A DNA stretch of 64,000 nt from an uncultured Gemmatimonadales bacterium. GTDB taxonomy: Bacteria; Gemmatimonadota; Gemmatimonadetes; Gemmatimonadales; Gemmatimonadaceae. Shown here in pieces: positions 51,714 to 63,912 of this stretch. A program made the translations under genes and the position numbers. Positions within the stretch are counted from its first letter, which is position 1, and each line of letters opens with the position of its first letter. The stretch lies in contig CAVPQB010000006.1 in the NCBI GenBank assembly GCA_963707505.1, positions 608,001 to 672,000 of the forward strand. The letters run 5' to 3'. The notes beneath the pieces were generated by a model. It was not told where the DNA came from. It ran no database searches and saw only the letters and a list, made by a program, of their open reading frames with translations.

Positions 51714-52205
51714 ATGAAGACCGCATTCATATATACGGCTACAGTCGCCGCTCTCGTCGCCTGCTCCCAGACGCCACCGGTTGCCGCACAAACACCTGTT
51801 CACTGGGCAATCGCCCCGGTTCATGGTGTGATCGGCAATGGTACGGTATCGAACGTAAGGATCGACGGGACCATTCAGGCTGGCTGGCACATCTACTCTA
51901 TCACCCAGCCGCCTGGCGGACCGTACGCCACACGGATCTCAGTCCCGGATGGTCAGTCGTTCGTCGCCGCTGGCAACCCCAAGGCAATCCTGGCGCCGCA
52001 CGTCGCATTCGACAGCGCCTTCAAGATGAATGTCCAGTTGCACGAAAAAGCGGCAAGTTTCGACGTCCCCGTGCGCTTCACTGGAAAGGTCGCCGCTGGC
52101 GACTCTGTCCACGTCAACGTCAGATACCAGGTCTGCAATGCCTCGCTCTGCCTCCCGCCCCAGACCGCGAAGCTCGTGGCCCCAGTTGTACCAACGGCCA
52201 GATAG
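51714..52205 (+). CDS. Stand-alone DsbD N-terminal (alpha) domain, probable lipoprotein
   Basis: LVAC lipobox; GWHIYS; YQVCNASLCLPP (C-x4-C). Confidence 0.8.
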   Translation: MKTAFIYTATVAALVACSQTPPVAAQTPVHWAIAPVHGVIGNGTVSNVRIDGTIQAGWHIYSITQPPGGPYATRISVPDGQSFVAAGNPKAILAPHVAFDSAFKMNVQLHEKAASFDVPVRFTGKVAAGDSVHVNVRYQVCNASLCLPPQTAKLVAPVVPTAR

Positions 52206-52239
52206 CCGCAGTCGATGATACTGTGCGTGGGATGAATCC

Positions 52240-53610
52240 GTGATCCAGACAGCAGCGGGAATTTCGCCCGCTTTTCTCTGGCTCGCTGCGACCGCAGGTG
52301 CATTGTCGCTGCTCACACCGTGCGTATTCCCCATGGTGCCGATCACGGTGTCGTATTTCCTGCGTCACGCACAAACGAGCCGAGCCCGAGCGTTCACTGC
52401 CGTCGCGATCTTCGGACTTGGCATCATCGTCACGTTCACGGCACTCGGCGTTACCGTCGCAGCGCTCGTTGGTGCTGCAGGGCTGACGCGATTCGCTGCC
52501 AATGCATGGGTGAATCTCGCGATTGCCGCAATCTTCCTCGGTCTCGCGCTCAACCTGCTCGGTTTCTATCAGTTGAACGTCTCGAGCCGAGTGCTGAGCG
52601 GCATCGATTCGGTCACGCGCGGCAGGAAAGAATCCGACGCCACGAGCGCGCTGCTCATGGGTGTGCTCTTCACGCTCACGAGCTTCACGTGCACCGCACC
52701 GTTCATTGGAACGCTGCTGGTCGCTGCATCACAGGGCGAATGGCAACGGCCGATCGTCGGAATGCTGGTTTATGCCGTTGTATTCGCGCTTCCATTCATC
52801 GTCCTCGCGACCGTCCCGCGCTGGATCAACAGTCTGCCCAGCTCCGGCGCCTGGCTGAATCGCATCAAGGTCGTGATGGGCTTCGTCGAGCTCGCCGCCG
52901 TGGCGAAGTTCATATCCAACGCGGATCTGGTCTGGCACTGGAACATCTTCACTCACGATGTCGTGCTCGCGATCTGGGTAGTGCTCGCGCTGATCGCGAC
53001 GTTCTACCTGTTGGGCGCATTTCGTCTGCCGCACGAGCCGCAGCTGGAGCGTACGGAAGCGACCAGAGCATCGCAGCGCGCATTACCGCACATCGGCGCC
53101 TCGCAGGCTGTCCCGGCACTGATTTTTCTTGCGCTCGGTATGTGGCTGGCCACCGGCCTCACGGGCGGTACGCTTGGTACGCTTGAATCGTTCCTCCCTC
53201 CCGTGGGTGGCGCACCGGCCGCGGTCAACGCCGCGGACGTCCCGGCCGAGCTCCACTGGCGGCTCAATGATCTTCCAGCGGCTCTCGCCGTCGCGCGCCA
53301 GCAGAACAGGCGTGTATTCATCGATTTTACCGGATACACGTGCACCAACTGCCGTTGGATGGAATCCAACATGTTCAGTCGGCCCGAGATAAAAGTCGCG
53401 ATGAACCGGTTCGTCCTCGCGCGTCTCTACACCGACGGCGACGGTGACATCTATGACAAGCAGCAGATGATGCAACAGCAGCGCTTCGGAACCATCGCCC
53501 TGCCGCTTTATGCGATAGTCGATCCTGACGGTAAAACAGTCACGACATTCGCCGGGCTTACACGCAGCCCAAATGATTTTCTTTCGTTCCTGTCCGCCGG
53601 GCTGAATTAG
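52240..53610 (+). CDS. dsbD: DsbD/CcdA transmembrane domain plus thioredoxin domain
   Basis: LLTPCVFPMVP, SFTCTAP, GAWLNRIKVVMGF, FIDFTGYTCTNCRWME. Confidence 0.85.
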   Translation: MIQTAAGISPAFLWLAATAGALSLLTPCVFPMVPITVSYFLRHAQTSRARAFTAVAIFGLGIIVTFTALGVTVAALVGAAGLTRFAANAWVNLAIAAIFLGLALNLLGFYQLNVSSRVLSGIDSVTRGRKESDATSALLMGVLFTLTSFTCTAPFIGTLLVAASQGEWQRPIVGMLVYAVVFALPFIVLATVPRWINSLPSSGAWLNRIKVVMGFVELAAVAKFISNADLVWHWNIFTHDVVLAIWVVLALIATFYLLGAFRLPHEPQLERTEATRASQRALPHIGASQAVPALIFLALGMWLATGLTGGTLGTLESFLPPVGGAPAAVNAADVPAELHWRLNDLPAALAVARQQNRRVFIDFTGYTCTNCRWMESNMFSRPEIKVAMNRFVLARLYTDGDGDIYDKQQMMQQQRFGTIALPLYAIVDPDGKTVTTFAGLTRSPNDFLSFLSAGLN

Positions 53611-53809
53611 CTTTTCGTGTCGATTTGTCCGGTACGGATCGTACCATGCTATAAGTCAGATGTTGTATTTCTTGCCAGGCGAAAATTGCCGATTACCAAG
53701 TCATAAGCGGCTCGTCCTAATGGGACGCACGCGACCGCGTGCTGAGAAATTCGGGCGGAATCAGCTGTATGGGATACGTCCCTGTGGCGCACCTTTTGGA
53801 GGCTCGACC

Positions 53810-55444
53810 ATGTTGTCCCATCGCTCGTTGTGCATTGGGCTCCTGCTGTTGCCGGCGCTTCCTGCGTTCGGTCAGAAACCCGCCGCGTCGCATCGTCCTG
53901 CGCAGGCGCGCTCGCAACAAACGTCGGCATCTCTTGCTGCCCCGCAGGTACGTGCAGTCGTGCTTCCGGTCGACGGACTCGAGAGTGATTCGGTGCAGAC
54001 GATCATCTCGCGCGATCTGAATTTCGGCGATCGCGTACAGGTTGTATCCGATCTGACACCTGTCGTACCGTCCACCAAAAAGACGCAGCAGCCAACCGCT
54101 GTGGTCAGGACAGTCGCAACTGCGGCCGGAGTGACCGTATCACTTGTCGATCCGCTGAGCGGTACAGTCAGGCAGCAGCATGACTTTGCGCTCCCGCAGG
54201 TGTCGCGTCGTACGGAACAGGCAATTGCCGATTCGCTGAACCAGGCATTCGACGCGCGCGACCTCATGCGTCGCACACGCATCGTTCGCGCAGAGACAGT
54301 TCGCGATTCGCTCCAGGCCGAGATGGCCAAAAAGGCGCCCAAGCTGCGCAACAAGGAGGCGAAGGCGCAATACGCCGAGCTCGTGACACAGCGCAACAAC
54401 ATGCTCATCGGCGCGCTGGGGGAGCTGGCGACAATCCGTGGCGAGCGTGAGCGTGATGAAGCCGCCCGCGCCGGGGTTCAGCACGATGCCATCGCACGCG
54501 AAGCAGTGATTCGCGATTCGGCGACCGCGGCCCGCCGCTGGGCAATCCACGGTGTTTCTGATGCCGTTGAGGAGTGGATGACCGGACATCGCGGCATCGC
54601 ACAGTCGCGCGTCGCGTACGTATCGAACGGTGTGATTCGTGTCGTCGATTTCGATGGGGCCAACGATCATCCGGTAACGCGTATCGACAAGGATGGAGAC
54701 AAGGCCATGTCGCCCGCGTGGCGCCGGGATGGCACCGCCATCGTTTACAGCGAGATGAGTGATGCAGGCACGCAGATCGCCGTGGTCGATCTCGTCACCG
54801 GAACGACTCGCGCATTGGCTGCAACACCGCGCGGGCTCAACATCACGCCGATCTTCTCCGCTGATGACAAGTCAGTCATCTACGCGAACGGCTCCGATTT
54901 CCACACCAGTCTTGTCTCGGTCCAGCTTGACGCCGCCACGACGGCCAAGCCGCTTCCGGTAAACCGCGCCTTCGACGTGGATGAGCCGATTCTGAGCCCC
55001 GACGGCACGCGCATCGCCTACGTGTCGTCCCGCCCCAAGACCCCGCAGATCTATTCCGCCAATCTTGACGGAACAGACGAGCGTGTCGAAGCACCTGCAC
55101 CTCCAAAGACGCGTGTCTATCACACCAGCCCGGACTGGAGCCCCGACGGACGGATGATCGCGTACCAGCAGCAGAATGGCGATTTCCAGGTCTGGGTGGT
55201 GAACCGGGATAGCCGCAGCGTCCGCCGTCTCACCTCAGTTGGCGAGAACGAGGATCCGTCGTGGGCACCGGACGCGCGCCACATCGCTCTCACGTCCAAC
55301 CGTGGCGGTGCCAAGGCAATCTGGGTTCTGGATATCCAGACCGGTCGATTCCGGCAGCTCACGGCAGCCGGCGACGCTCGTCTGGCGGCCTGGTCTGGCC
55401 CGCTCGGCTCCAGAGCTCCAGCACCCCTGGCGATCGCTCGATAG
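53810..55444 (+). CDS. TolB-like periplasmic beta-propeller (PD40 repeats) with helical insertion
   Basis: Start at MLSHRSL with SD GGAGG; IISRDLNFGDR; HGVSDAVEEWMTGHRGIAQSRVAYV; SPAWRRDG, PILSPDG, SPDWSPDG, NEDPSWAPD. Confidence 0.8.
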   Translation: MLSHRSLCIGLLLLPALPAFGQKPAASHRPAQARSQQTSASLAAPQVRAVVLPVDGLESDSVQTIISRDLNFGDRVQVVSDLTPVVPSTKKTQQPTAVVRTVATAAGVTVSLVDPLSGTVRQQHDFALPQVSRRTEQAIADSLNQAFDARDLMRRTRIVRAETVRDSLQAEMAKKAPKLRNKEAKAQYAELVTQRNNMLIGALGELATIRGERERDEAARAGVQHDAIAREAVIRDSATAARRWAIHGVSDAVEEWMTGHRGIAQSRVAYVSNGVIRVVDFDGANDHPVTRIDKDGDKAMSPAWRRDGTAIVYSEMSDAGTQIAVVDLVTGTTRALAATPRGLNITPIFSADDKSVIYANGSDFHTSLVSVQLDAATTAKPLPVNRAFDVDEPILSPDGTRIAYVSSRPKTPQIYSANLDGTDERVEAPAPPKTRVYHTSPDWSPDGRMIAYQQQNGDFQVWVVNRDSRSVRRLTSVGENEDPSWAPDARHIALTSNRGGAKAIWVLDIQTGRFRQLTAAGDARLAAWSGPLGSRAPAPLAIAR

Positions 55445-55477: not shown

Positions 55478-55574
55478 TGTAACGCTACGTTACAACCATT
55501 TCGTTTCGCAAACCGGCGGGTCACACTGTAAGTCGTTGGTATCCAACGATTTAACTTGTGGCCCGCCGGTTGCT
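55478..55574 (+). promoter_or_regulatory. Sigma54 promoter module: enhancer palindrome, IHF-like dyad, -24/-12 box
   Basis: TGTAACG-CTA-CGTTACA (55478-55494); TAAGTCGTTG-N5-CAACGATTTA (55529-55553); TGGCCC-GCCGG-TTGCT (55559-55574). Confidence 0.8.
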
Positions 55575-55620: not shown

Positions 55621-56334
55621 ATGTTTCGTACTTCGATCGTTCGCTCTACCATATTCGGTCTGGGCGTCGCGCTCATCGCGACGGGGTGCACACCGGAGAA
55701 CCTTTCCGGACCCCAGGTATCGCTGACCCCACCGAATGCAGCAGTCACGGCACCAGCCGTAGCTGCACCGCGGGCAGGAACGCCTGGAGCCAACGCCAAC
55801 CTGCTTGGCGGAGTCCTCAATCTTACTGGAGCAGTCGTCCAGACAGTCGTTCAAACGGTGAATGACCTGCTTTACCCGGTCGTTCAGCGCCAGCAGGCCC
55901 TGGCTCATCCGATCACGGTCACGCACACGATCGGCACTGCTGGCGGATCGATCTCAATTCCGCAGGCAGGTCTCACCATAACGTTCGCCCGCGGTGCGGT
56001 GCTAAGGTCCACGCCGATCACGGTTACCGCCGACTCTGGCAAGGCGGTTTCATACGAGTTTGGTCCACACGGCACGCAGTTCTACGCGCCGGTAACGATC
56101 GCGCAGGACATGAGCCTGACGACGCTGGCGGACAAGCCCGGCGCCGCTTCCGGCATCCACGGCGGTTACACCGCGAACGGCCTGCAAGACATAATCGGCG
56201 GATTGCTGGCACGTGTCGCCGAGCTCCTCGATGCGACGACAACGGTCATAATCGGCCGCGATGGCAAGGCCCACCTCGGTACTTCCAGCTTCATAATCAA
56301 GCACTTCTCGGGCTACATCCTGATCAGCACCTGA
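55621..56334 (+). CDS. Lipoprotein with ZU5-like beta-sandwich domain ending in an HFS motif
   Basis: SD GGAG; lipobox IATG-C23; IGTAGGSISIPQAGLTITFARGAV..TPITVT..YEFGPHGTQFYAPVTI resembles ZU5 domains; C-terminus IIKHFSGYILIST. Confidence 0.65.
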   Translation: MFRTSIVRSTIFGLGVALIATGCTPENLSGPQVSLTPPNAAVTAPAVAAPRAGTPGANANLLGGVLNLTGAVVQTVVQTVNDLLYPVVQRQQALAHPITVTHTIGTAGGSISIPQAGLTITFARGAVLRSTPITVTADSGKAVSYEFGPHGTQFYAPVTIAQDMSLTTLADKPGAASGIHGGYTANGLQDIIGGLLARVAELLDATTTVIIGRDGKAHLGTSSFIIKHFSGYILIST

Positions 56335-56342
56335 GGCGCGCA

Positions 56343-57392
56343 ATGAACTCCGAAGCGATGCACTTTCCACCCACACCGTTCGATGAGCTGCGCGCACGCG
56401 CAGCTCAGTTCATCGACAAGGCCAAGACAGCTCAACGTCATGGTGATGCGGACAGTGCGTTGGCGCACTACGATGACGCGCTCTCGTTGATGGAGGATGA
56501 GGGCGATTCCCCCATGGCTGCCGATGTGCTCAGATGGAAGGGCTGGGTGTTGAGCGAACGAGGGGATACACCCGCAGCGTACCGGTTCTTCAATCGAAGT
56601 CTCGCAATGGCCGAACGGCTCGATTACGTGAATGGCCAGGCACATGCGCTCAACTGTCTTGGCACAATTGCACAGCGTCGAGGAGAGCTGAAAAATGCCG
56701 AGCGGTTGTACAGCCAGGCCGCGTTTCGCGCTGAAGCGAGCGCCGACCGTCGGTTGCTCGGAATGGTCGAGCTGAATCAGGGAGTGATCGCATCGTCGCT
56801 GGGAGACTGGGACACTTCGATAGTGCGGTTGCGGCTGAGTCTCAAGGCATTCGAGAGCGTCGGCGACAAGGAGGGAGCGTCCTACGCGCACAACAACATC
56901 GGACTGCATTACGCCGCAAGGAAGCGTTATGCACAGGCTGTCGAATCGTTTGAAATGGCTCTCGCGATCGCGTACTCGCGAGAAGACATGGTGGTCGAGG
57001 CAACGGTCGAGCTGAACCTCGGCGACGTTCGAATACGGCAGGCGGAGCTTGACAGCGCGACGCGGTCGGTTGCCCGGGCGCTCAAGATCGCTGAGATCCG
57101 GCGGGACCGCCTTCGCATGGCCGAGGCGCTGCGGCTCAAGGCACGGATCGAGAGGTTGCGCGGACAGTTGGCGACAGCCGTGGAGACGCTGCGGCAGGCA
57201 CGCTATCAGGCTCGGGAGGGCGAAGATGCCCTGCTTCAGCTGGAGCTTCTGACCGAGCTCGGCGAGCTCTGCCGCGAGCAGGGCGATTCGGAGCGGACCA
57301 GAGACGTTCTTCGAGAAGCCCTGGTCGGTTTTACCGAGATAGGCGCGATCAGACGAGCCGAGGCAATTGCGGAGGAATTGGCCGCTTTGTAG
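56343..57392 (+). CDS. Stand-alone cytoplasmic tetratricopeptide-repeat protein
   Basis: About eight 40-aa helical repeats (AHALNCLG, VELNQG, AHNNIG, VELNLG); no signal peptide or catalytic domain. Confidence 0.85.
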   Translation: MNSEAMHFPPTPFDELRARAAQFIDKAKTAQRHGDADSALAHYDDALSLMEDEGDSPMAADVLRWKGWVLSERGDTPAAYRFFNRSLAMAERLDYVNGQAHALNCLGTIAQRRGELKNAERLYSQAAFRAEASADRRLLGMVELNQGVIASSLGDWDTSIVRLRLSLKAFESVGDKEGASYAHNNIGLHYAARKRYAQAVESFEMALAIAYSREDMVVEATVELNLGDVRIRQAELDSATRSVARALKIAEIRRDRLRMAEALRLKARIERLRGQLATAVETLRQARYQAREGEDALLQLELLTELGELCREQGDSERTRDVLREALVGFTEIGAIRRAEAIAEELAAL

Positions 57393-57474: not shown

Positions 57475-58563
<1,089 letters not shown>

Positions 58564-58574
58564 CGACAGCGACA

Positions 58575-60188
58575 ATGACGCAGATTGGCGGAGTCTCGCG
58601 TCCTGATTCTCCTGTTTCGTTCGACGACGTGGTCGGCGAGGCGCGGAGTCTCGAGCGGAATGGCAGATGGACGGAGGCACGCTCCTGCTATGAGCGTCTA
58701 TTGGGTGACGATACACTCACCGCGGCGGCGCGCTCATCGGTATTACGCTGGATCGGCCGCACGCACGCCGAGGAAGGGAATCCGGACACAGCGTTCTCCG
58801 TGCTCGAGCGGGCCGTTGCGGCCGCGCAGGAATCAGGTGAGGTGGGCGTGGAAGCGCACGCGCTCAACGGGCTCGCGGTAATCGAGCAGACGCTGGGCAA
58901 CCTCGACCGTTCCGAGGAGTTGTATGTACGCGCGCGAAGCCGTGCCGCCGAAGCCGACGATGAGCTGCTGGTGGCGATACTGGACCAGAATCTCGCAACC
59001 GTGGCGAACATTCGCGGTAATCTGGAGCTCGCGCTCGAGTCGTATGGATCGAGCCGGAAGCGCTTCCATGCGCTGGGCCGTTCATCATACGAAGCACACG
59101 TGCTCAATAATGTCGGGATGGTGCTGACAGATCTTGGACGGTGGGAAGACGCCGAAGCGGCGTATTGCTCCGCGTGCGAAGCGTGTGCAAGCAGCGACGA
59201 CAGAGAGCTGCTGCGCAGGATCGAGGTGAATCAGGCCGAGCTCTGGATTGCACGTAACGATCTGCCCAAGGCGCGCGAGCGGTGCGAGCGGTTGCTGAAC
59301 GATGCACAGCGTGAAAAAAATGTATCAGCGCCATGGCTCGGCGAGGTTTACAAGCACTACGGCGTCGTGTGCCGGGAACAGCGTCAGCTTGATCGTGCTG
59401 AAGGTTGGTTTGCACAGGCAGCAAGGATCGCGGATAACTCGCATGACCTGCTCCTTGCCGCTGAAACGGCGCGCGAGCAGGCCGAGCTTTACTGGATTCA
59501 GGCGCGAAACAGCGACACGCTGCAGGCGCTGAACGCAGCACACGGCTGGTTTTCACAACTGCGCGCGGAGCGTGACCTCGATGCGATCGCACGGCGCAAC
59601 GGACGTCTGGAAGAGCGTTTTCTCGAAGTAGTGCGGAAGTGGGGCGAATCGATCGAAAGCAAGGACTGTTACACGCAAGGGCACTGCGTACGTGTCGCAG
59701 ACGTAGCGTGCATGCTCGCCGAGCGTATGGGGTTCGACTCGAAAACATTGTTCTGGTTCCGCATTGGCGCTCTGCTGCACGACGTTGGCAAGTTGATAGT
59801 TCCGCAGGAAGTGCTCAACAAGCCAGGCAAGCTCGATGACGATGAGTGGCGCATCATGAAGCGTCACCCCGAAGCCGGTGTCGAGCTGCTGGCCGACATC
59901 GAATTTCCGTGGGATGTGAGGCCCATGGTGCGCAACCATCACGAGCGCTGGGACGGCGCAGGATATCCGGATGAGCTGGCGGGTGAAGCGATACCGCTTT
60001 CGGCGCGCATTCTCTGCATCGCCGATGTGTACGACGCTCTCACGACGAATCGCTCGTACCGTAAGGGGTTCGATCATGAACGGGCTGTGGCCGTAATGAC
60101 CGAGAACAATGCGAACGGTCACTTCGATCCGGCGATATTCGATCTCTTCCTCGAATGGGCTGCGACGCACAACACACAGGTGGGATGA
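58575..60188 (+). CDS. TPR-repeat HD-GYP cyclic-dinucleotide phosphodiesterase
   Basis: N-terminal TPR array; C-terminal KDCYTQGHCVRV, LLHDVGK, LNKPGKL, HHERWDGAGYP, IADVYDALTTNRSYRK, all motifs intact. Confidence 0.92.
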   Translation: MTQIGGVSRPDSPVSFDDVVGEARSLERNGRWTEARSCYERLLGDDTLTAAARSSVLRWIGRTHAEEGNPDTAFSVLERAVAAAQESGEVGVEAHALNGLAVIEQTLGNLDRSEELYVRARSRAAEADDELLVAILDQNLATVANIRGNLELALESYGSSRKRFHALGRSSYEAHVLNNVGMVLTDLGRWEDAEAAYCSACEACASSDDRELLRRIEVNQAELWIARNDLPKARERCERLLNDAQREKNVSAPWLGEVYKHYGVVCREQRQLDRAEGWFAQAARIADNSHDLLLAAETAREQAELYWIQARNSDTLQALNAAHGWFSQLRAERDLDAIARRNGRLEERFLEVVRKWGESIESKDCYTQGHCVRVADVACMLAERMGFDSKTLFWFRIGALLHDVGKLIVPQEVLNKPGKLDDDEWRIMKRHPEAGVELLADIEFPWDVRPMVRNHHERWDGAGYPDELAGEAIPLSARILCIADVYDALTTNRSYRKGFDHERAVAVMTENNANGHFDPAIFDLFLEWAATHNTQVG

Positions 60189-61783
60189 CAATGTCGTTCA
60201 TACGTCGCGAAGATGTTGGCGCATCGCTGCGATCGGTCGCGCTTGCAGGATTGATCATCATCGCTGTCGCTGCGTGCGCGGGAGAGGCGAGGGTCGGGAA
60301 GGCGAGTGGTGCAGGAGGGACACTCGTTGTCGCCACAGCCGGCGACGCCGACAACCTCTTTCCACCGCTTACACTGACCAGTCAGGGGCGCCAGGTGGTG
60401 GATCAGATATTCGATTATCTGGCGGACATCGGCCCCGACTTGAATACGATTGGCGATGGAGGCTTCACGCCCAGGCTGGCCGATTCCTGGCGCTGGGCTC
60501 CGGATTCGTCGTGGATAGCGTTCCACATCAATCCGCGTGCACGCTGGCACGACGGGCAGCCGGTTCGCGCCGGCGACGTCCGCTTCACATTCAAATTGCT
60601 GACGGACTCGACGCTTGCATCGCCGATTGCAGCGACATTGCGCGGGATCGATTCGGTAAGTGTGCGCGATTCACTTACTGCGGTCGTGTGGTACTCGAGA
60701 CGGACGCCGGAGCAGTTCTTCAATTTCGTGTACAACGTCGCGATACTGCCTGAGCATCTTCTGCACGATGTTCCGGTGAAGTCACTTGCATCGTCACAGT
60801 TTGCGCGGCATCCAGTGGGCAGTGGCCGGTTCAGGTTTGGCAGATGGGACGGCGGGTCGCGCATCGAGATCGTGACTGACAGTAATAACTATCGCGGACG
60901 CGCACGGCTCGATCGCGTTGTGTGGTTGGTGTCGCCGGACATGCAGGCAGCGACGACGCGGTTGCTGGCGGGCGAGGCGGACTTCCTCGAGGTCGTGCGT
61001 GGTCCCGCAGTGGATCAGGTTGTCGCATCGCCGCGCGTACGACTGTTGACGTCGCCGAGTCTCGATTACGGCTTTCTGGGGTTCAACGTTCGGCGTGCGC
61101 CGTTCAATGACAGGGAAGTACGGCGTGCGTTGAGCATGGCCGTGGATCGGTCGGCGATGGCCCGGAACGTGTTCGACACGCTGGCGCTCCCGGGGCTCGG
61201 CCCCGTGACGCGCGCGTTACCGGTCAGCAGGAACGTTGTTGCACTTTCGTATGATTCCGCGGCAGCGGTGAAGATACTTGCCGCGCACGGTCCGATCTCC
61301 TTCCGGTTGCTCGTTCCCACGTCGAGCGCCGTGCGCATGAAGTACGCAACGCTGCTTCAGGAGCAGTACCGTCGCTTCGGAGTGAACGTGACCATCGAGC
61401 CGCTCGAGGTCAACGCATTCGTTCGGCGACTCACAAGAAGCGACTTCGATGCGGTGCTCAATGCATGGCATTCCGACCCCAGTCCTGCCGCCGTTGTTCA
61501 GGCATGGGGGACGGCCGGCGCGCCGCCCGAGGGTGCGAATTTTGTCGGGTACACGAGTCAGCGCTTCGACGCGCTGGTGGATAGCGGCGCACGGTCATTC
61601 GATCCGGCGCGTGCGCGTGACTTTTATGCGCGGGCCTATGAGGAGATCGATGGCGACGCTCCGGCGGTGTGGCTGTACGACGCCCGGAACGCGAGCGGGG
61701 TGAGCCGTCGGGTGCACGTAGCTGGCACGAGGGCGGACGCCTGGTGGTCCGATCTTCCAGACTGGACAGTCGGCAAGCGCTGA
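60185..61783 (+). CDS. Peptide ABC transporter substrate-binding lipoprotein (SBP family 5, OppA/DppA-like)
   Basis: ATGA overlap with the HD-GYP stop; lipobox VAAC; PRLADSW, RWHDGQPVRAGDVRFT, PVGSGRFRF, PFNDREVRRALSMAVDR. Confidence 0.88.
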   Translation: MTMSFIRREDVGASLRSVALAGLIIIAVAACAGEARVGKASGAGGTLVVATAGDADNLFPPLTLTSQGRQVVDQIFDYLADIGPDLNTIGDGGFTPRLADSWRWAPDSSWIAFHINPRARWHDGQPVRAGDVRFTFKLLTDSTLASPIAATLRGIDSVSVRDSLTAVVWYSRRTPEQFFNFVYNVAILPEHLLHDVPVKSLASSQFARHPVGSGRFRFGRWDGGSRIEIVTDSNNYRGRARLDRVVWLVSPDMQAATTRLLAGEADFLEVVRGPAVDQVVASPRVRLLTSPSLDYGFLGFNVRRAPFNDREVRRALSMAVDRSAMARNVFDTLALPGLGPVTRALPVSRNVVALSYDSAAAVKILAAHGPISFRLLVPTSSAVRMKYATLLQEQYRRFGVNVTIEPLEVNAFVRRLTRSDFDAVLNAWHSDPSPAAVVQAWGTAGAPPEGANFVGYTSQRFDALVDSGARSFDPARARDFYARAYEEIDGDAPAVWLYDARNASGVSRRVHVAGTRADAWWSDLPDWTVGKR

Positions 61784-61956: not shown

Positions 61957-63912
61957 ATGCTTCAGCCAAGATCGGCCGCTGCGGTGGTCGTTCTCTTCAG
62001 CGCGCTTGCGGCAGGTGCGCAGCAGCCGACTCCACAGCAGACAGAAGCGACCCGCAGAGGAGCTGGTGACACGTCGATCTTTGCACCGCTGGATCTGTAT
62101 CCGTCGCCCAACGTTTACAGGACCGGTGACGGCCGGCCCGGCGCTCATTACTGGCAGCAGCGCGCCGATTACGATCTGCACGCGACGCTGGATACGACGA
62201 ACAAATCGCTGAGCGCATCGATGACGTTGCGATACACGAACAACTCGCCAGATACCCTGCGATTCATCTGGGTTCAGACCGAGCAGAACGCATTCCGGCC
62301 GGGTTCGCTCAACACGCTCGTATTCGCACCCGACAGTCGCTTCGGATCGCGCAGCTTTGTGGGTGGCGATGTGATCGATCACTTCAATCAAGTCGTCAAC
62401 GGACGTGCGACTCCACTCAAGTTGCGCGACAACGGAACTGTGACCAAGGTCGATCTGGCCCAGCCACTGGCGCCTGGCAAGACGGCTACATTCGACGCAG
62501 CATGGCACTTTCTGATTCCGGAGCATGGCGCTGATCGCATGGGCCGCGATGGTTCGCTGTTCGAGCTCGCCCAGTGGTATCCACGTGTGAACGTGTATGA
62601 CGACGTCCGCGGCTGGAACACGGAGCCGTATCTCGGACAGGGCGAGTTCTATCTGGAGTACGGTGATTTCAATCTGAGCGTCACGGTTCCATCGGGCTAC
62701 ATCGTGGCCGCGACGGGAACGCTCGCGAATCCGCACGACGTGCTGACGCCGACCGAGATCGCCCGTCTTGCGAAGGCGGCCAGGTCCGACACACCAGTAC
62801 CGATCATCACGGCATCGGATCTCACCAGCGGGGCAGCGCGGCCACGGACTACCGGCACGATGACGTGGCGCTTCAAGGCACACAACGTGCGCGACGTGGC
62901 GTGGGCGGCATCGCCCGAATACCAGTGGGATGCATCGAGCTGGAAGGGAATTCTGGCGCAGGCGTACTATCGGCCGAGCGCGGCAATCAACTGGGACGAT
63001 GCGGCGGACCAGGCGCGCATGTCGATTCAGGAGTATTCGGAGCGCTGGTTCATGTATCCGTATCCTCAGATCACCGCCGTCGAAGGTCCGATCAGCGGAA
63101 TGGAGTACCCGATGCTCGCGATGGAGACCAAGAGTCGCGACAAGCCGGATCTGTACAACGTCGTGACTCATGAGATCGGACACAACTGGTTCCCGATGAT
63201 CGTCGGCTCCAACGAGCGCGTACAGTTCTGGCAGGACGAAGGTTTCAACACGTTCATCAACACCTTCAGCGAAGCGCGTCGCTATCCGCAGAACGGCGAC
63301 CAGATGCAGCGAGCAGCCGAGGAGCGTGCACAGGTCGAGCAGACGCAGAAGTTGAACATCGACGTTCCGATCATCACGAATCCGGATCGTATCGACCCGC
63401 GCAAGCTCGGCTTCACAGAATACGTCAAGACGTCTGTCGGCCTTCAGCTTCTGCGCCAGGAGATCATGGGGCCTGCGGCCTTCGACGACGCGTTCAAGGA
63501 ATACACGCGCCGTTGGGCGTTCAAGCATCCAACGCCGACTGATTTCTTCCGTACGATGGAATCGGTTGGCGGGCAGCGGCTGGACTGGTTCTGGCGCGAG
63601 TGGTTCTATGAAGATCCACATTTCGATCAGGCCATCGAGTCGGTGCAGGCGACTGATTCGAGTGGGGTGCAGCACGTCACGGTCGTGTATGGCAATCGTG
63701 CACGCGGTGTGCTGCCGATACGCGCGCACTTCACCTTCAGCGACGGCACAACGCAGGATTTCGAGTATCCCGCGCTGGTCTGGAGTACCAACAGTGTCCG
63801 CTATGTTCGGGAATACGACTTCACCGGCAAGACTGTGAAGCGGATCGATCTCGATCCCGATCGGCGTCTTGTGGATGTCGATCGGACGAACAACAGCTGG
63901 ATGGCGCAGTGA
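61957..63912 (+). CDS. M1-family zinc aminopeptidase, exported
   Basis: Signal peptide; YWQQRADY, AQWYPR, GMEYP, HEIGHNWF...DEGFN, WAFKHPTP. Confidence 0.92.
   Translation: MLQPRSAAAVVVLFSALAAGAQQPTPQQTEATRRGAGDTSIFAPLDLYPSPNVYRTGDGRPGAHYWQQRADYDLHATLDTTNKSLSASMTLRYTNNSPDTLRFIWVQTEQNAFRPGSLNTLVFAPDSRFGSRSFVGGDVIDHFNQVVNGRATPLKLRDNGTVTKVDLAQPLAPGKTATFDAAWHFLIPEHGADRMGRDGSLFELAQWYPRVNVYDDVRGWNTEPYLGQGEFYLEYGDFNLSVTVPSGYIVAATGTLANPHDVLTPTEIARLAKAARSDTPVPIITASDLTSGAARPRTTGTMTWRFKAHNVRDVAWAASPEYQWDASSWKGILAQAYYRPSAAINWDDAADQARMSIQEYSERWFMYPYPQITAVEGPISGMEYPMLAMETKSRDKPDLYNVVTHEIGHNWFPMIVGSNERVQFWQDEGFNTFINTFSEARRYPQNGDQMQRAAEERAQVEQTQKLNIDVPIITNPDRIDPRKLGFTEYVKTSVGLQLLRQEIMGPAAFDDAFKEYTRRWAFKHPTPTDFFRTMESVGGQRLDWFWREWFYEDPHFDQAIESVQATDSSGVQHVTVVYGNRARGVLPIRAHFTFSDGTTQDFEYPALVWSTNSVRYVREYDFTGKTVKRIDLDPDRRLVDVDRTNNSWMAQ

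Follow-up and report, generated by a model that had tools for sequence, protein, structure and literature searches.

The window, a stretch of 64,000 nucleotides from an uncultured Gemmatimonadales bacterium, carries an operon that opens with a lipoprotein gene, followed on the same strand by genes for a stand-alone TPR protein, a sigma-54 activator, a TPR protein fused to an HD-GYP domain, a family-5 solute-binding lipoprotein and an M1 aminopeptidase (Table 1). The ATG of the lipoprotein gene has GGAG 12 nt upstream. Its product has the lipobox LIATG↓C23 (Cys codon TGC at 55687), an Ala/Pro-rich linker of low model confidence (AlphaFold2 pLDDT <50 at residues 17-29 and 32-79), a beta domain that begins with high confidence at about residue 85, and the C-terminus KHF↓SGYILIST followed directly by the stop codon; the TPR gene starts 8 nt past this stop. 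The original prediction had described the lipobox, the Ala/Pro linker and a terminal HFS with seven residues after it, and the reading frame and the AlphaFold2 model confirm all three.

Table 1. Coordinates of the genes and sites discussed in the text, in positions of the window.
Feature	Position	Strand	Description or basis
Palindrome TGTAAC-N5-GTTACA, candidate enhancer (UAS) for the sigma-54 activator	55478-55494	+	perfect
Possible IHF-type bending site between enhancer and promoter	55530-55556	.	weak
Sigma-54 -24/-12 promoter-like site TGGC-N7-TTGC	55559-55573	+	62 nt before start codon
Lipoprotein gene, 237 aa	55621-56334	+	signal peptide, lipobox Cys23, disordered linker, ZU5/GAIN-type domain (about aa 88-237)
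His228-Phe229-Ser230, predicted self-cleavage site F↓S	56302-56310	+	turn position; NLRP1 alignment
Tail SGYILIST, last strand and likely ligand of adjacent TPR	56308-56331	+	couplings of +5, +4, +2, +7 to A-helices; held-out prediction
8-repeat stand-alone TPR protein, likely peptide receptor	56343-57392	+	Pfam TPR; no signal peptide
Sigma-54 activator, AAA+ and Fis-type HTH, no N-terminal sensor	57475-58563	+	Pfam Sigma54_activat from aa 41, HTH_8
TPR + HD-GYP, predicted cyclic-di-GMP phosphodiesterase	58575-60188	+	Pfam TPR, HD_5; HD, HHE, GYP motifs
Family-5 (Opp/Dpp-type) solute-binding lipoprotein, candidate peptide importer	60191-61783	+	Pfam SBP_bac_5
M1 aminopeptidase, N-terminal signal-like stretch	61957-63912	+	Pfam Peptidase_M1

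The candidate enhancer is the sole perfect copy of this palindrome in the genome, with none at one mismatch. Counting the window, 21 of 23 close relatives keep it, at a distance of 81-82 bp on the upstream side of a -24/-12 box that is itself present in 23 of 23 close relatives among the matches listed. Across the family, the strict sigma-54 motif occurs in 54 of 269 upstream regions, the reverse strand having it in 0 of 269; a relaxed box is found at 49 of 67 loci with an activator gene compared with 91 of 202 loci lacking one; RpoN is encoded in the genome. Upstream sequences of relatives also share a conserved TAAGTCGTTG...TCAACGACTT pattern of IHF type, and the strict IHF consensus has no match in the window itself. 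The activator itself, whose start codon is uncertain, has intact Walker A, GAFTDA, Walker B and R-finger motifs, and an activator is the commonest gene after a stand-alone TPR gene (38 of 135 cases, with 33 at an edge). We infer that it would bind the palindrome and act on the operon's own promoter. RNA runs covering the operon were looked for and none is listed, which bears neither way on its expression. PspA controls PspF in trans, and by analogy the TPR protein might control the sigma-54 activator in a similar manner.

Directly upstream of the module, at 51714-55444, lie DsbD-N-like, DsbD-TM/thioredoxin and TolB-like genes, whose synteny extends among close relatives only. This synteny is local, and we rejected the TolB and DsbD-like genes as parts of the system.

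Fold and predicted cut site of the lipoprotein

The lipoprotein gene is single copy, in a genome without a paralogue, and the named homologues of its product belong to Gemmatimonadota. A PDB sequence search returned nothing meaningful (best E 0.18), NCBIfam has no family matching the protein, 0 of 17 candidate stretches in viral contigs were confirmed as relatives, and an Atlas search yielded unnamed clusters and one ZU5-labelled lead at 0.88, nothing else. Pfam ZU5 (PF00791) stays under its gathering threshold on this protein (E 0.019, 15.7 bits, cut-off 21), and a precomputed Pfam ZU5 match is carried by two homologues. Despite the sub-threshold Pfam score, the ZU5-type fold that had been predicted is borne out by the AlphaFold2 model (84 sequences; domain pLDDT above 90), for which Foldseek gives E 2e-5 to a ZU5-type fold. 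In VIA, the ZU5 domains of ankyrins, UNC5b and ZO-1 come first (Z 11.7 to 8.1; best for ankyrin and UNC5b, with Z 11.7, rmsd 2.4 Å and 115 aligned residues), followed by GAIN domains, which align at Z 6-8, and by the FIIND of CARD8/NLRP1. The model shows the ZU5/GAIN-B beta-sandwich with the H-x-S/T/C of the superfamily at the homologous position, in the turn before the last strand: strands 217-228 and 231-236 are predicted to flank a turn holding the HFS at 228-230, with 231-236 as the last strand.

Residue 229 is the exact end of several alignments to cleaved GAIN and FIIND chains, and the NLRP1 alignment ends with model residue 229 opposite NLRP1 residue 1212, which places the F↓S bond of the lipoprotein at the cut site of self-cleaving relatives, as the original prediction had supposed. 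The ZU5 domain of UNC5CL also has HF↓S as its autoproteolytic site. For PIDD and Nup98, the assignment of HFS as the site agrees with the accessible text of PMC3210808, which also reports that NLRP1 autocleavage requires Ser1213 and that Nup98 cleavage is only slightly slowed by loss of the His. In the bacterial MAIN domain, the HF↓S cut was shown by Edman sequencing, according to the accessible part of the preprint (bioRxiv 10.64898/2026.05.12.724683). Considering the fold, the alignment of residue 229 with NLRP1 and the HF↓S precedent in MAIN, we think it very probable that the lipoprotein cleaves itself between Phe229 and Ser230.

What would happen after the cut is a separate matter. Because the tail forms the last strand of the fold, its release would need some trigger. 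The caution that a cleaved strand normally stays bound was well placed: in the accessible part of the same preprint (bioRxiv 10.64898/2026.05.12.724683) the MAIN cleavage products co-purify, their release being shown with SDS or 95 °C, and the cleaved parts of CARD8 stay together as well (accessible text of PMC3210808); the accessible portion of PMC11148069 contains no data on strand release. Release of the strand from the fold is the weakest step of the model considered below.

HFS is kept in 84 of the 85 proteins found, the exception looking frameshifted, and none of the 84 aligned sequences departs from H, F, S or the Tyr at +3; judged from the sequences, the motif is not there by chance. 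Tail length among the HFS keepers is 8 residues in 65 and 10-19 in 19, and family-wide it is 7 in 161 and 8 in 87 of 343 tails. Conservation of HFS among homologues, one of the expectations set out beforehand, thus extends from the close relatives to the wider family, in which 343 of 371 domain ORFs end in HFS or HFC plus 7-27 further residues. The companion expectation of a fixed tail length held roughly, in that lengths of 7 or 8 dominate; a strictly fixed length was rejected in view of the range of 7-27 residues among the 343 relatives.

Several departures from the common pattern were seen. Several large internal-domain relatives are without the His. GF followed by T or S stands in place of HFS, with a canonical tail and an adjacent TPR kept, at L070:7112-7756, L094:2236-2919, L357:767-1393 and L333:4945-5658; the L070 and L094 variants lie behind a sigma-54 activator and face a normal module. 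A paralogue at L146:842-1699 has HFC, with Cys replacing the nucleophilic Ser, and a protein at L052:7986-9728 (minus strand) has two tandem domains, both with HFS and the second with a short tail. At L057:3935-4483 a shortened precursor without HFS ends in the tail-like RGYAVASG and is followed by TPR, activator and TPR-HD-GYP genes. In a divergent subgroup (L088, L148 and L112), the sigma-54 activator lies upstream of the lipoprotein, the tails end in TLIVGG(G) or YLLAGG, and the TPRs have N104 replaced and, in one case, E301 replaced.

Probable pairing of the tail with the adjacent TPR protein

With the first alignment, the phylum gave matches in 124 of 301 genomes; the wider alignment matched 271 of 401 genomes of the order, a tally that includes one unpublished genome, G370, which enters no other result; 950 cluster representatives were obtained at E up to 1e-10. 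Gene linkage was counted over 326 stretches holding 371 non-redundant domain ORFs: the window, 120 of 150 listed first-alignment places, 60 regions around wider-alignment places not already in the sample, 65 genome loci and 80 metagenome loci. The loci come from similarity searches, and many of them are related to one another. A TPR gene (135) or TPR-HD-GYP gene (143) follows on the same strand, directly or through tandem paralogues, in 278 of the 343 genes with the terminal motif and tail; among the remainder, 27 lie within 900 nt of a stretch end and 38 have another or no recognised neighbour. Among the 16 internal-domain relatives a single one, L057, has a TPR behind it, and this short gene was put into that class wrongly by the sorting rule. 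A second phylum, centred on L239 (Fibrella) and presumably Bacteroidota, has matches in 23 of 201 genomes. There, within the 30 loci returned and flanks of about 1.5 kb, the same TPR class stands beside 9 of 13 genes whose domain lies within 31 residues of the end, and the 17 internal-domain loci have no neighbour of this class except for one 17.6-bit match.

Some loci are arranged differently. L037, L038, L039 and L043 have long acidic tails, no adjacent TPR and a divergent family-5 binder, and their receptor may lie elsewhere. GAF-histidine kinases adjoin the module at L395:1914-3248, L396:1952-3298 and L199:806-2911, and may be another output.

The model of the adjacent TPR protein (pLDDT 97.8) consists of TPR helices throughout, with MalT III, APPBP2, Rap, LGN and NprR as its closest folds. 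The A-helices of TPR proteins line the peptide groove, and Asn ladders bind peptide backbones; in the family, N104, N145, N185, N225 and E301 are conserved in 201-216 of 217 TPRs. A lipobox-like motif is present in 282 of 310 precursors and a hydrophobic N-terminal stretch in 2 of 217 TPRs, so that the inner membrane is likely to separate the partners. Ranked by score within the genome, the top two proteins of this TPR class are both encoded in the operon (372 and 269 bits; next 107).

Covariation was analysed with 228 directly adjacent pairs, reduced to 225 by near-duplicate removal and to 217 by leaving out 8 in which a second peptide seems to be present. Of 41,168 inter-protein pairs, the three that mean-field direct coupling analysis puts at the top all involve the tail, namely +5 with V148 (z 11.2), +5 with T108 (8.4) and +4 with T221 (6.6), and the tail takes part in 10 of the top 50 couplings as against 3.2 expected; the highest z among partner shuffles within clades (n = 50) was 8.8. 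In the TPR model, the A-helices make up 136 of 332 TPR columns (41%). All ten of the best tail couplings and 17 of the best 20 fall on them; for body couplings the figures are 4 of 10 and 8 of 20. The tail positions follow the repeats in rough order (repeat 2 for +7, repeats 3-4 for +5, repeat 6 for +4, repeats 6-8 and 3 for +2), and the chemistry is complementary: +2 Arg occurs with Glu or Asp at 112 in at least 67 cases versus 6 with Arg, and a small +4 Ala with Leu221 in 104. Phylogenetically independent pairs were drawn from a tree built without the tail and the key columns. For +5 they put V148 at the top of the 295 TPR columns, with 9.5 agreeing and 0 opposing pairs and a median p of 0.004; for +4 the top column is T221 (4.6 versus 0, p 0.06); and for +5 Ile versus Val, T108 takes third place. 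Among the matches listed, +2 with 112 reaches just 3 to 0 in the same test, and +2 with 258, +2 with 224, +7 with 71 and +5 Leu with 108 receive no support.

Split by tail length, the 123 pairs with 7 tail residues show the top couplings strongly, and the 94 longer-tail pairs, the window's among them, show them weakly (ranks 173 and 98 of 41,168). In a partial-correlation test (partial Mantel) the tail comes first overall (0.31 versus at most 0.27), and in four subsets 3, 46, 69 and 15 of 110 body windows match or beat it; plain mutual information is led by body columns, not by the tail. As both are too confounded by clade structure, we give neither of them weight. Inside the lipoprotein domain, +2 also shows a coupling to a body residue. 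Covariation of the tail with the groove of the adjacent TPR, as had been proposed, is nevertheless upheld by the top three couplings, by their standing above within-clade shuffles, by their place on the A-helices and, for +5 and +4, by the independent pairs. Since the tail changes in step with the adjacent TPR across relatives, it is likely to be the peptide signal of this TPR, and we hold recognition of the tail by the adjacent TPR to be highly likely, perhaps through a pairing code of +5 with 148/108, +4 with 221 and +2 with 112, as read from the alignments.

When a six-link model of the pairing was trained without the window's clade (197 pairs), SGYILIS came out 5th of 84 tails for the adjacent TPR (the rounded score ties ranks 2-6) and 44th of 84 for the window's TPR-HD-GYP, the groove residues of which differ from those of the adjacent TPR and mismatch SGYILIST by the inferred code. 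The original prediction had both TPRs reading the peptide; in view of this rank and this mismatch, we rejected the TPR-HD-GYP of the window as a reader of the same peptide, and across relatives the locus peptide is in the top 10 of 84 for 20 of 54 second TPRs only. The window's TPR-HD-GYP keeps groove residues of its own across the clade (e.g. A-E-V-T-T-R-V at the code positions), and may therefore read a different ligand. In the second phylum, Glu112 is present in 4 of 4 full-length TPRs paired with a +2 Arg, and the partner of a +2 Ile has Ser.

Longer tails offer a further check. A second canonical copy of the peptide is found in 5 of 60 tails of 12 or more residues, compared with a mean of 0.56 in shuffled tails (0 of 2,000 shuffles reach 5), by a pattern that was chosen after seeing the cases. 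The second copy lies outside the fold and can therefore not be the strand next to the cut. Trained with the duplicated tails left out, the six-link model preferred the out-of-fold copy in 5 of 6 and the first copy in one; in the clearest case, SGYVLRSK-SRYAVAY, the first copy scored -15.1 and the second +3.9.

Tails with second copies were seen at L080:7893-8552 (minus strand), L128:7428-8150 (minus strand), L194:6764-7531, L054:7959-8765 (minus strand), L380:2-184 and L317:2555-3187. In the duplicated tails the first copy has drifted and the second is canonical-looking, several second copies coming after Arg or Lys. Three or more tandem precursors, mostly of low body identity (18-55% in most pairs), occur at L376, L245, L147 and L094. 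Apart from L094, which has one tail, these arrays have two or three different tails and may be multi-signal loci.

A proposed peptide circuit and its rivals

We propose the following scenario. The ZU5/GAIN-type domain of the lipoprotein, which is predicted to be exported, would cut itself between Phe229 and Ser230. Freed from the fold, the octapeptide SGYILIST would return to the cytoplasm, likely by a peptide ABC transporter, and there occupy the groove of the TPR protein encoded beside it. This TPR would control the sensorless sigma-54 activator behind it, and the activator would in turn act on the conserved enhancer and promoter of the operon, closing a feedback loop. In most relatives, the receptor TPR is fused to an HD-GYP phosphodiesterase instead and would tune cyclic di-GMP. 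Of this scenario, the sequence, the gene linkage, the conservation of the promoter and the tail-TPR covariation are observed, the fold and the place of the cut are predicted, and the later steps, down to direct binding and the sign of regulation, are inferred, as is cleavage itself. We put the probability of this reading, in which the tail is cut off by its own domain, released, taken up and read by the adjacent TPR and feeds back on its own promoter, at roughly 0.6, and consider the export-release-import route of the peptide, taken whole, moderately likely. The peptide may either pass between cells in a quorum-like manner or report envelope damage in the same cell; true cell-to-cell signalling is a tentative idea that we would not yet favour. 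Equally tentative, when all its parts are taken jointly, is the wider view of a widespread Gram-negative system with many specificity groups in Gemmatimonadota and Bacteroidota, in which a GAIN/ZU5 lipoprotein might self-cleave its own pheromone (a free 'Stachel'), which would leave its fold, be imported and be read by cognate TPR receptors through a residue code, coupled to sigma-54 auto-induction and cyclic-di-GMP turnover. Compared with the original prediction as a whole, the fold, the position of the cut site, the HFS and the tail-TPR covariation are retained, and two readers and a strictly constant tail length are given up.

As for import, the best NCBIfam match of the family-5 binder is Opp4A, below cut-off. 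The gene is without an adjoining permease, and the protein is 46% identical to another family-5 binder that lies beside permease genes in the same genome. Annotation of 15 neighbours at loci of the family revealed no recognisable permease cluster. The M1 aminopeptidase, present at the locus for 13 of 156 genes with at least 5.5 kb downstream, is weakly linked and might be a trimming or clearing enzyme.

The strongest competing explanation, though an unlikely one in our estimation, has the tail bind the TPR in the cytoplasm before export, an unsecreted precursor exposing or shedding its tail so that the pair monitors export or folding. Such an arrangement accounts for the covariation equally well, requires neither extraction of a buried strand in the envelope nor import, and is in keeping with the 117 of 156 loci that have no binder nearby. 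It leaves unexplained, however, the repeated recruitment of family-5 binders, which are at the locus for 39 of those 156 genes (three such genes exist in the 3.66-Mb genome) and span 24 tail types and both orientations. Furthermore, same-locus paralogues have an identical 7-mer in 24 of 67 pairs as against about 4.5 expected at matched body identity, a result that holds with or without a shared receptor in pairs that are not independent; these same-tail tandem precursors resemble the multi-propeptide loci of RRNPPA systems (accessible text of PMC9765709), and so speak against a purely cytoplasmic role.

Let us suppose instead that the peptide is indeed the TPR ligand but is freed by envelope proteases, HFS being a motif of the fold and self-cleavage dispensable. 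The four TPR-linked relatives with GF and S or T in place of HFS would fit this supposition, as would the out-of-fold copies, several of them after Arg or Lys, which would need another protease or an N-terminally extended reading. Yet 84 of 85 close relatives retain H, F and S, the His is lost in several large internal-domain relatives, the Cys that replaces Ser in one relative would keep the nucleophile, and loss of the His might cost little, as it does in Nup98 (PMC3210808, accessible text); we regard release by proteases as slightly less probable still than binding before export. Weakest of the three, by a small step, is the notion that the tail is a mere structural strand of a MAIN-like surface domain, the TPR linkage being real, the covariation a matter of ancestry and the lipoprotein acting otherwise: the tail does complete the beta-sandwich, +2 does couple to a body residue, clade structure dominates mutual information, the partial-correlation results are mixed and the signal is weak in the window's subset, but the couplings exceed within-clade shuffles, survive independent contrasts (+5, +4) and concentrate on A-helices, out-of-fold canonical copies fitted by the receptor occur in 5 of 60 long tails versus 0.56, and a fragment of 7-8 residues has nothing to anchor or release.

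If the self-cleaved and re-imported peptide proves to be real, it would give the strand freed by a GAIN/ZU5-type cut a signalling role in bacteria, link the tethered agonists of adhesion GPCRs to soluble peptide receptors, and place RRNPP-like peptide signalling in diderm phyla, with the breadth indicated by the domain matches in the order (271/401 genomes). The inferred code makes the system testable, and could provide orthogonal peptide-receptor pairs.

Comparison with known systems

MAIN is a close known counterpart in being a secreted bacterial beta-sandwich with HFS in the turn and F↓S cleavage, which has been shown for MAIN, and a profile of the lipoprotein family reaches an S-layer-anchored Paenibacillus protein at E 1e-8. 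According to the accessible text of the preprint by Brogan and Rudner (bioRxiv 10.64898/2026.05.12.724683), MAIN proteins average 158 kDa and consist of a signal peptide, cargo domains, MAIN and a C-terminal surface anchor, the N-terminal ectodomain being released, and no signalling is known for the C-terminal fragment; its main text, as accessible, makes no mention of TPR, lipoprotein, HD-GYP or Gemmatimonad. The lipoprotein, in contrast, has an N-terminal lipid anchor, no cargo and nothing after the strand, its C-terminal fragment being that strand of 7-8 residues. The same fold and HF↓S chemistry are shared with PIDD, the FIIND of NLRP1/CARD8, Nup98 and the bacterial ZU5 domains on toxins and surface proteins, which were proposed as autopeptidases in 2012 (PMC3482391). 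In these proteins, however, the cut separates large domains, and the accessible texts of PMC3210808 and PMC3482391 do not describe a stand-alone lipoprotein paired with a soluble receptor. In the adhesion-GPCR GAIN domain, too, the strand after the cut, the Stachel, is the signal itself (accessible text of PMC13062082). The Stachel stays tethered to its own membrane receptor, whereas SGYILIST would be a free peptide and would act on a different protein, the TPR receptor of the cytoplasm.

Enterococcal pheromones are likewise hydrophobic peptides of 7-8 residues from lipoprotein precursors, and PrgZ is a dedicated binder that borrows the chromosomal Opp permease, much as the window's binder is without a permease of its own; in enterococci, signal peptidase II and Eep produce the peptide from the N-terminal signal sequence (accessible text of PMC7117660), whereas here it would arise at the C-terminus by predicted self-cleavage. 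In its proposed logic, the present system resembles RRNPPA (Rap/Phr, NprR, PlcR, AimR), in which a precursor gene and a gene for a cytoplasmic TPR receptor are adjacent, the peptide is C-terminal, import is by Opp (only a candidate here), and peptides are duplicated and precursor genes multiple (accessible text of PMC9765709). A cytoplasmic TPR gene beside the precursor is what we find as well (278/343, with hydrophobic N-termini in 2/217), and the TPR model aligns with Rap at Z 24.4 and NprR at Z 22.9. It is nearer by fold to MalT III (Z 30) and APPBP2 (Z 28), and by sequence to LGN/Pins among the matches listed; RRNPPA proteins are absent from the 60 of 154 TPR sequence matches listed. Neither an N-terminal HTH nor a Rap-type three-helix effector is present, Pfam recognising TPR only, and HD in addition in the second TPR protein. 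RRNPPA systems are described for Firmicutes, with small unstructured propeptides and separate proteases (PMC9765709, accessible text), unlike the folded, predicted self-cutting 237-aa lipoprotein of diderm bacteria considered here, the outputs of which would be HD-GYP and a sigma-54 activator.

A literature search, with most subscription journals outside its scope, returned no description of a ZU5-lipoprotein/TPR system, and the messaging system appears to be undescribed so far, its parts being known and their combination not found. As proposed here, it works like RRNPPA with a GAIN-style maturation step, yet it has the architecture of neither the MAIN surface proteins nor the RRNPPA family.
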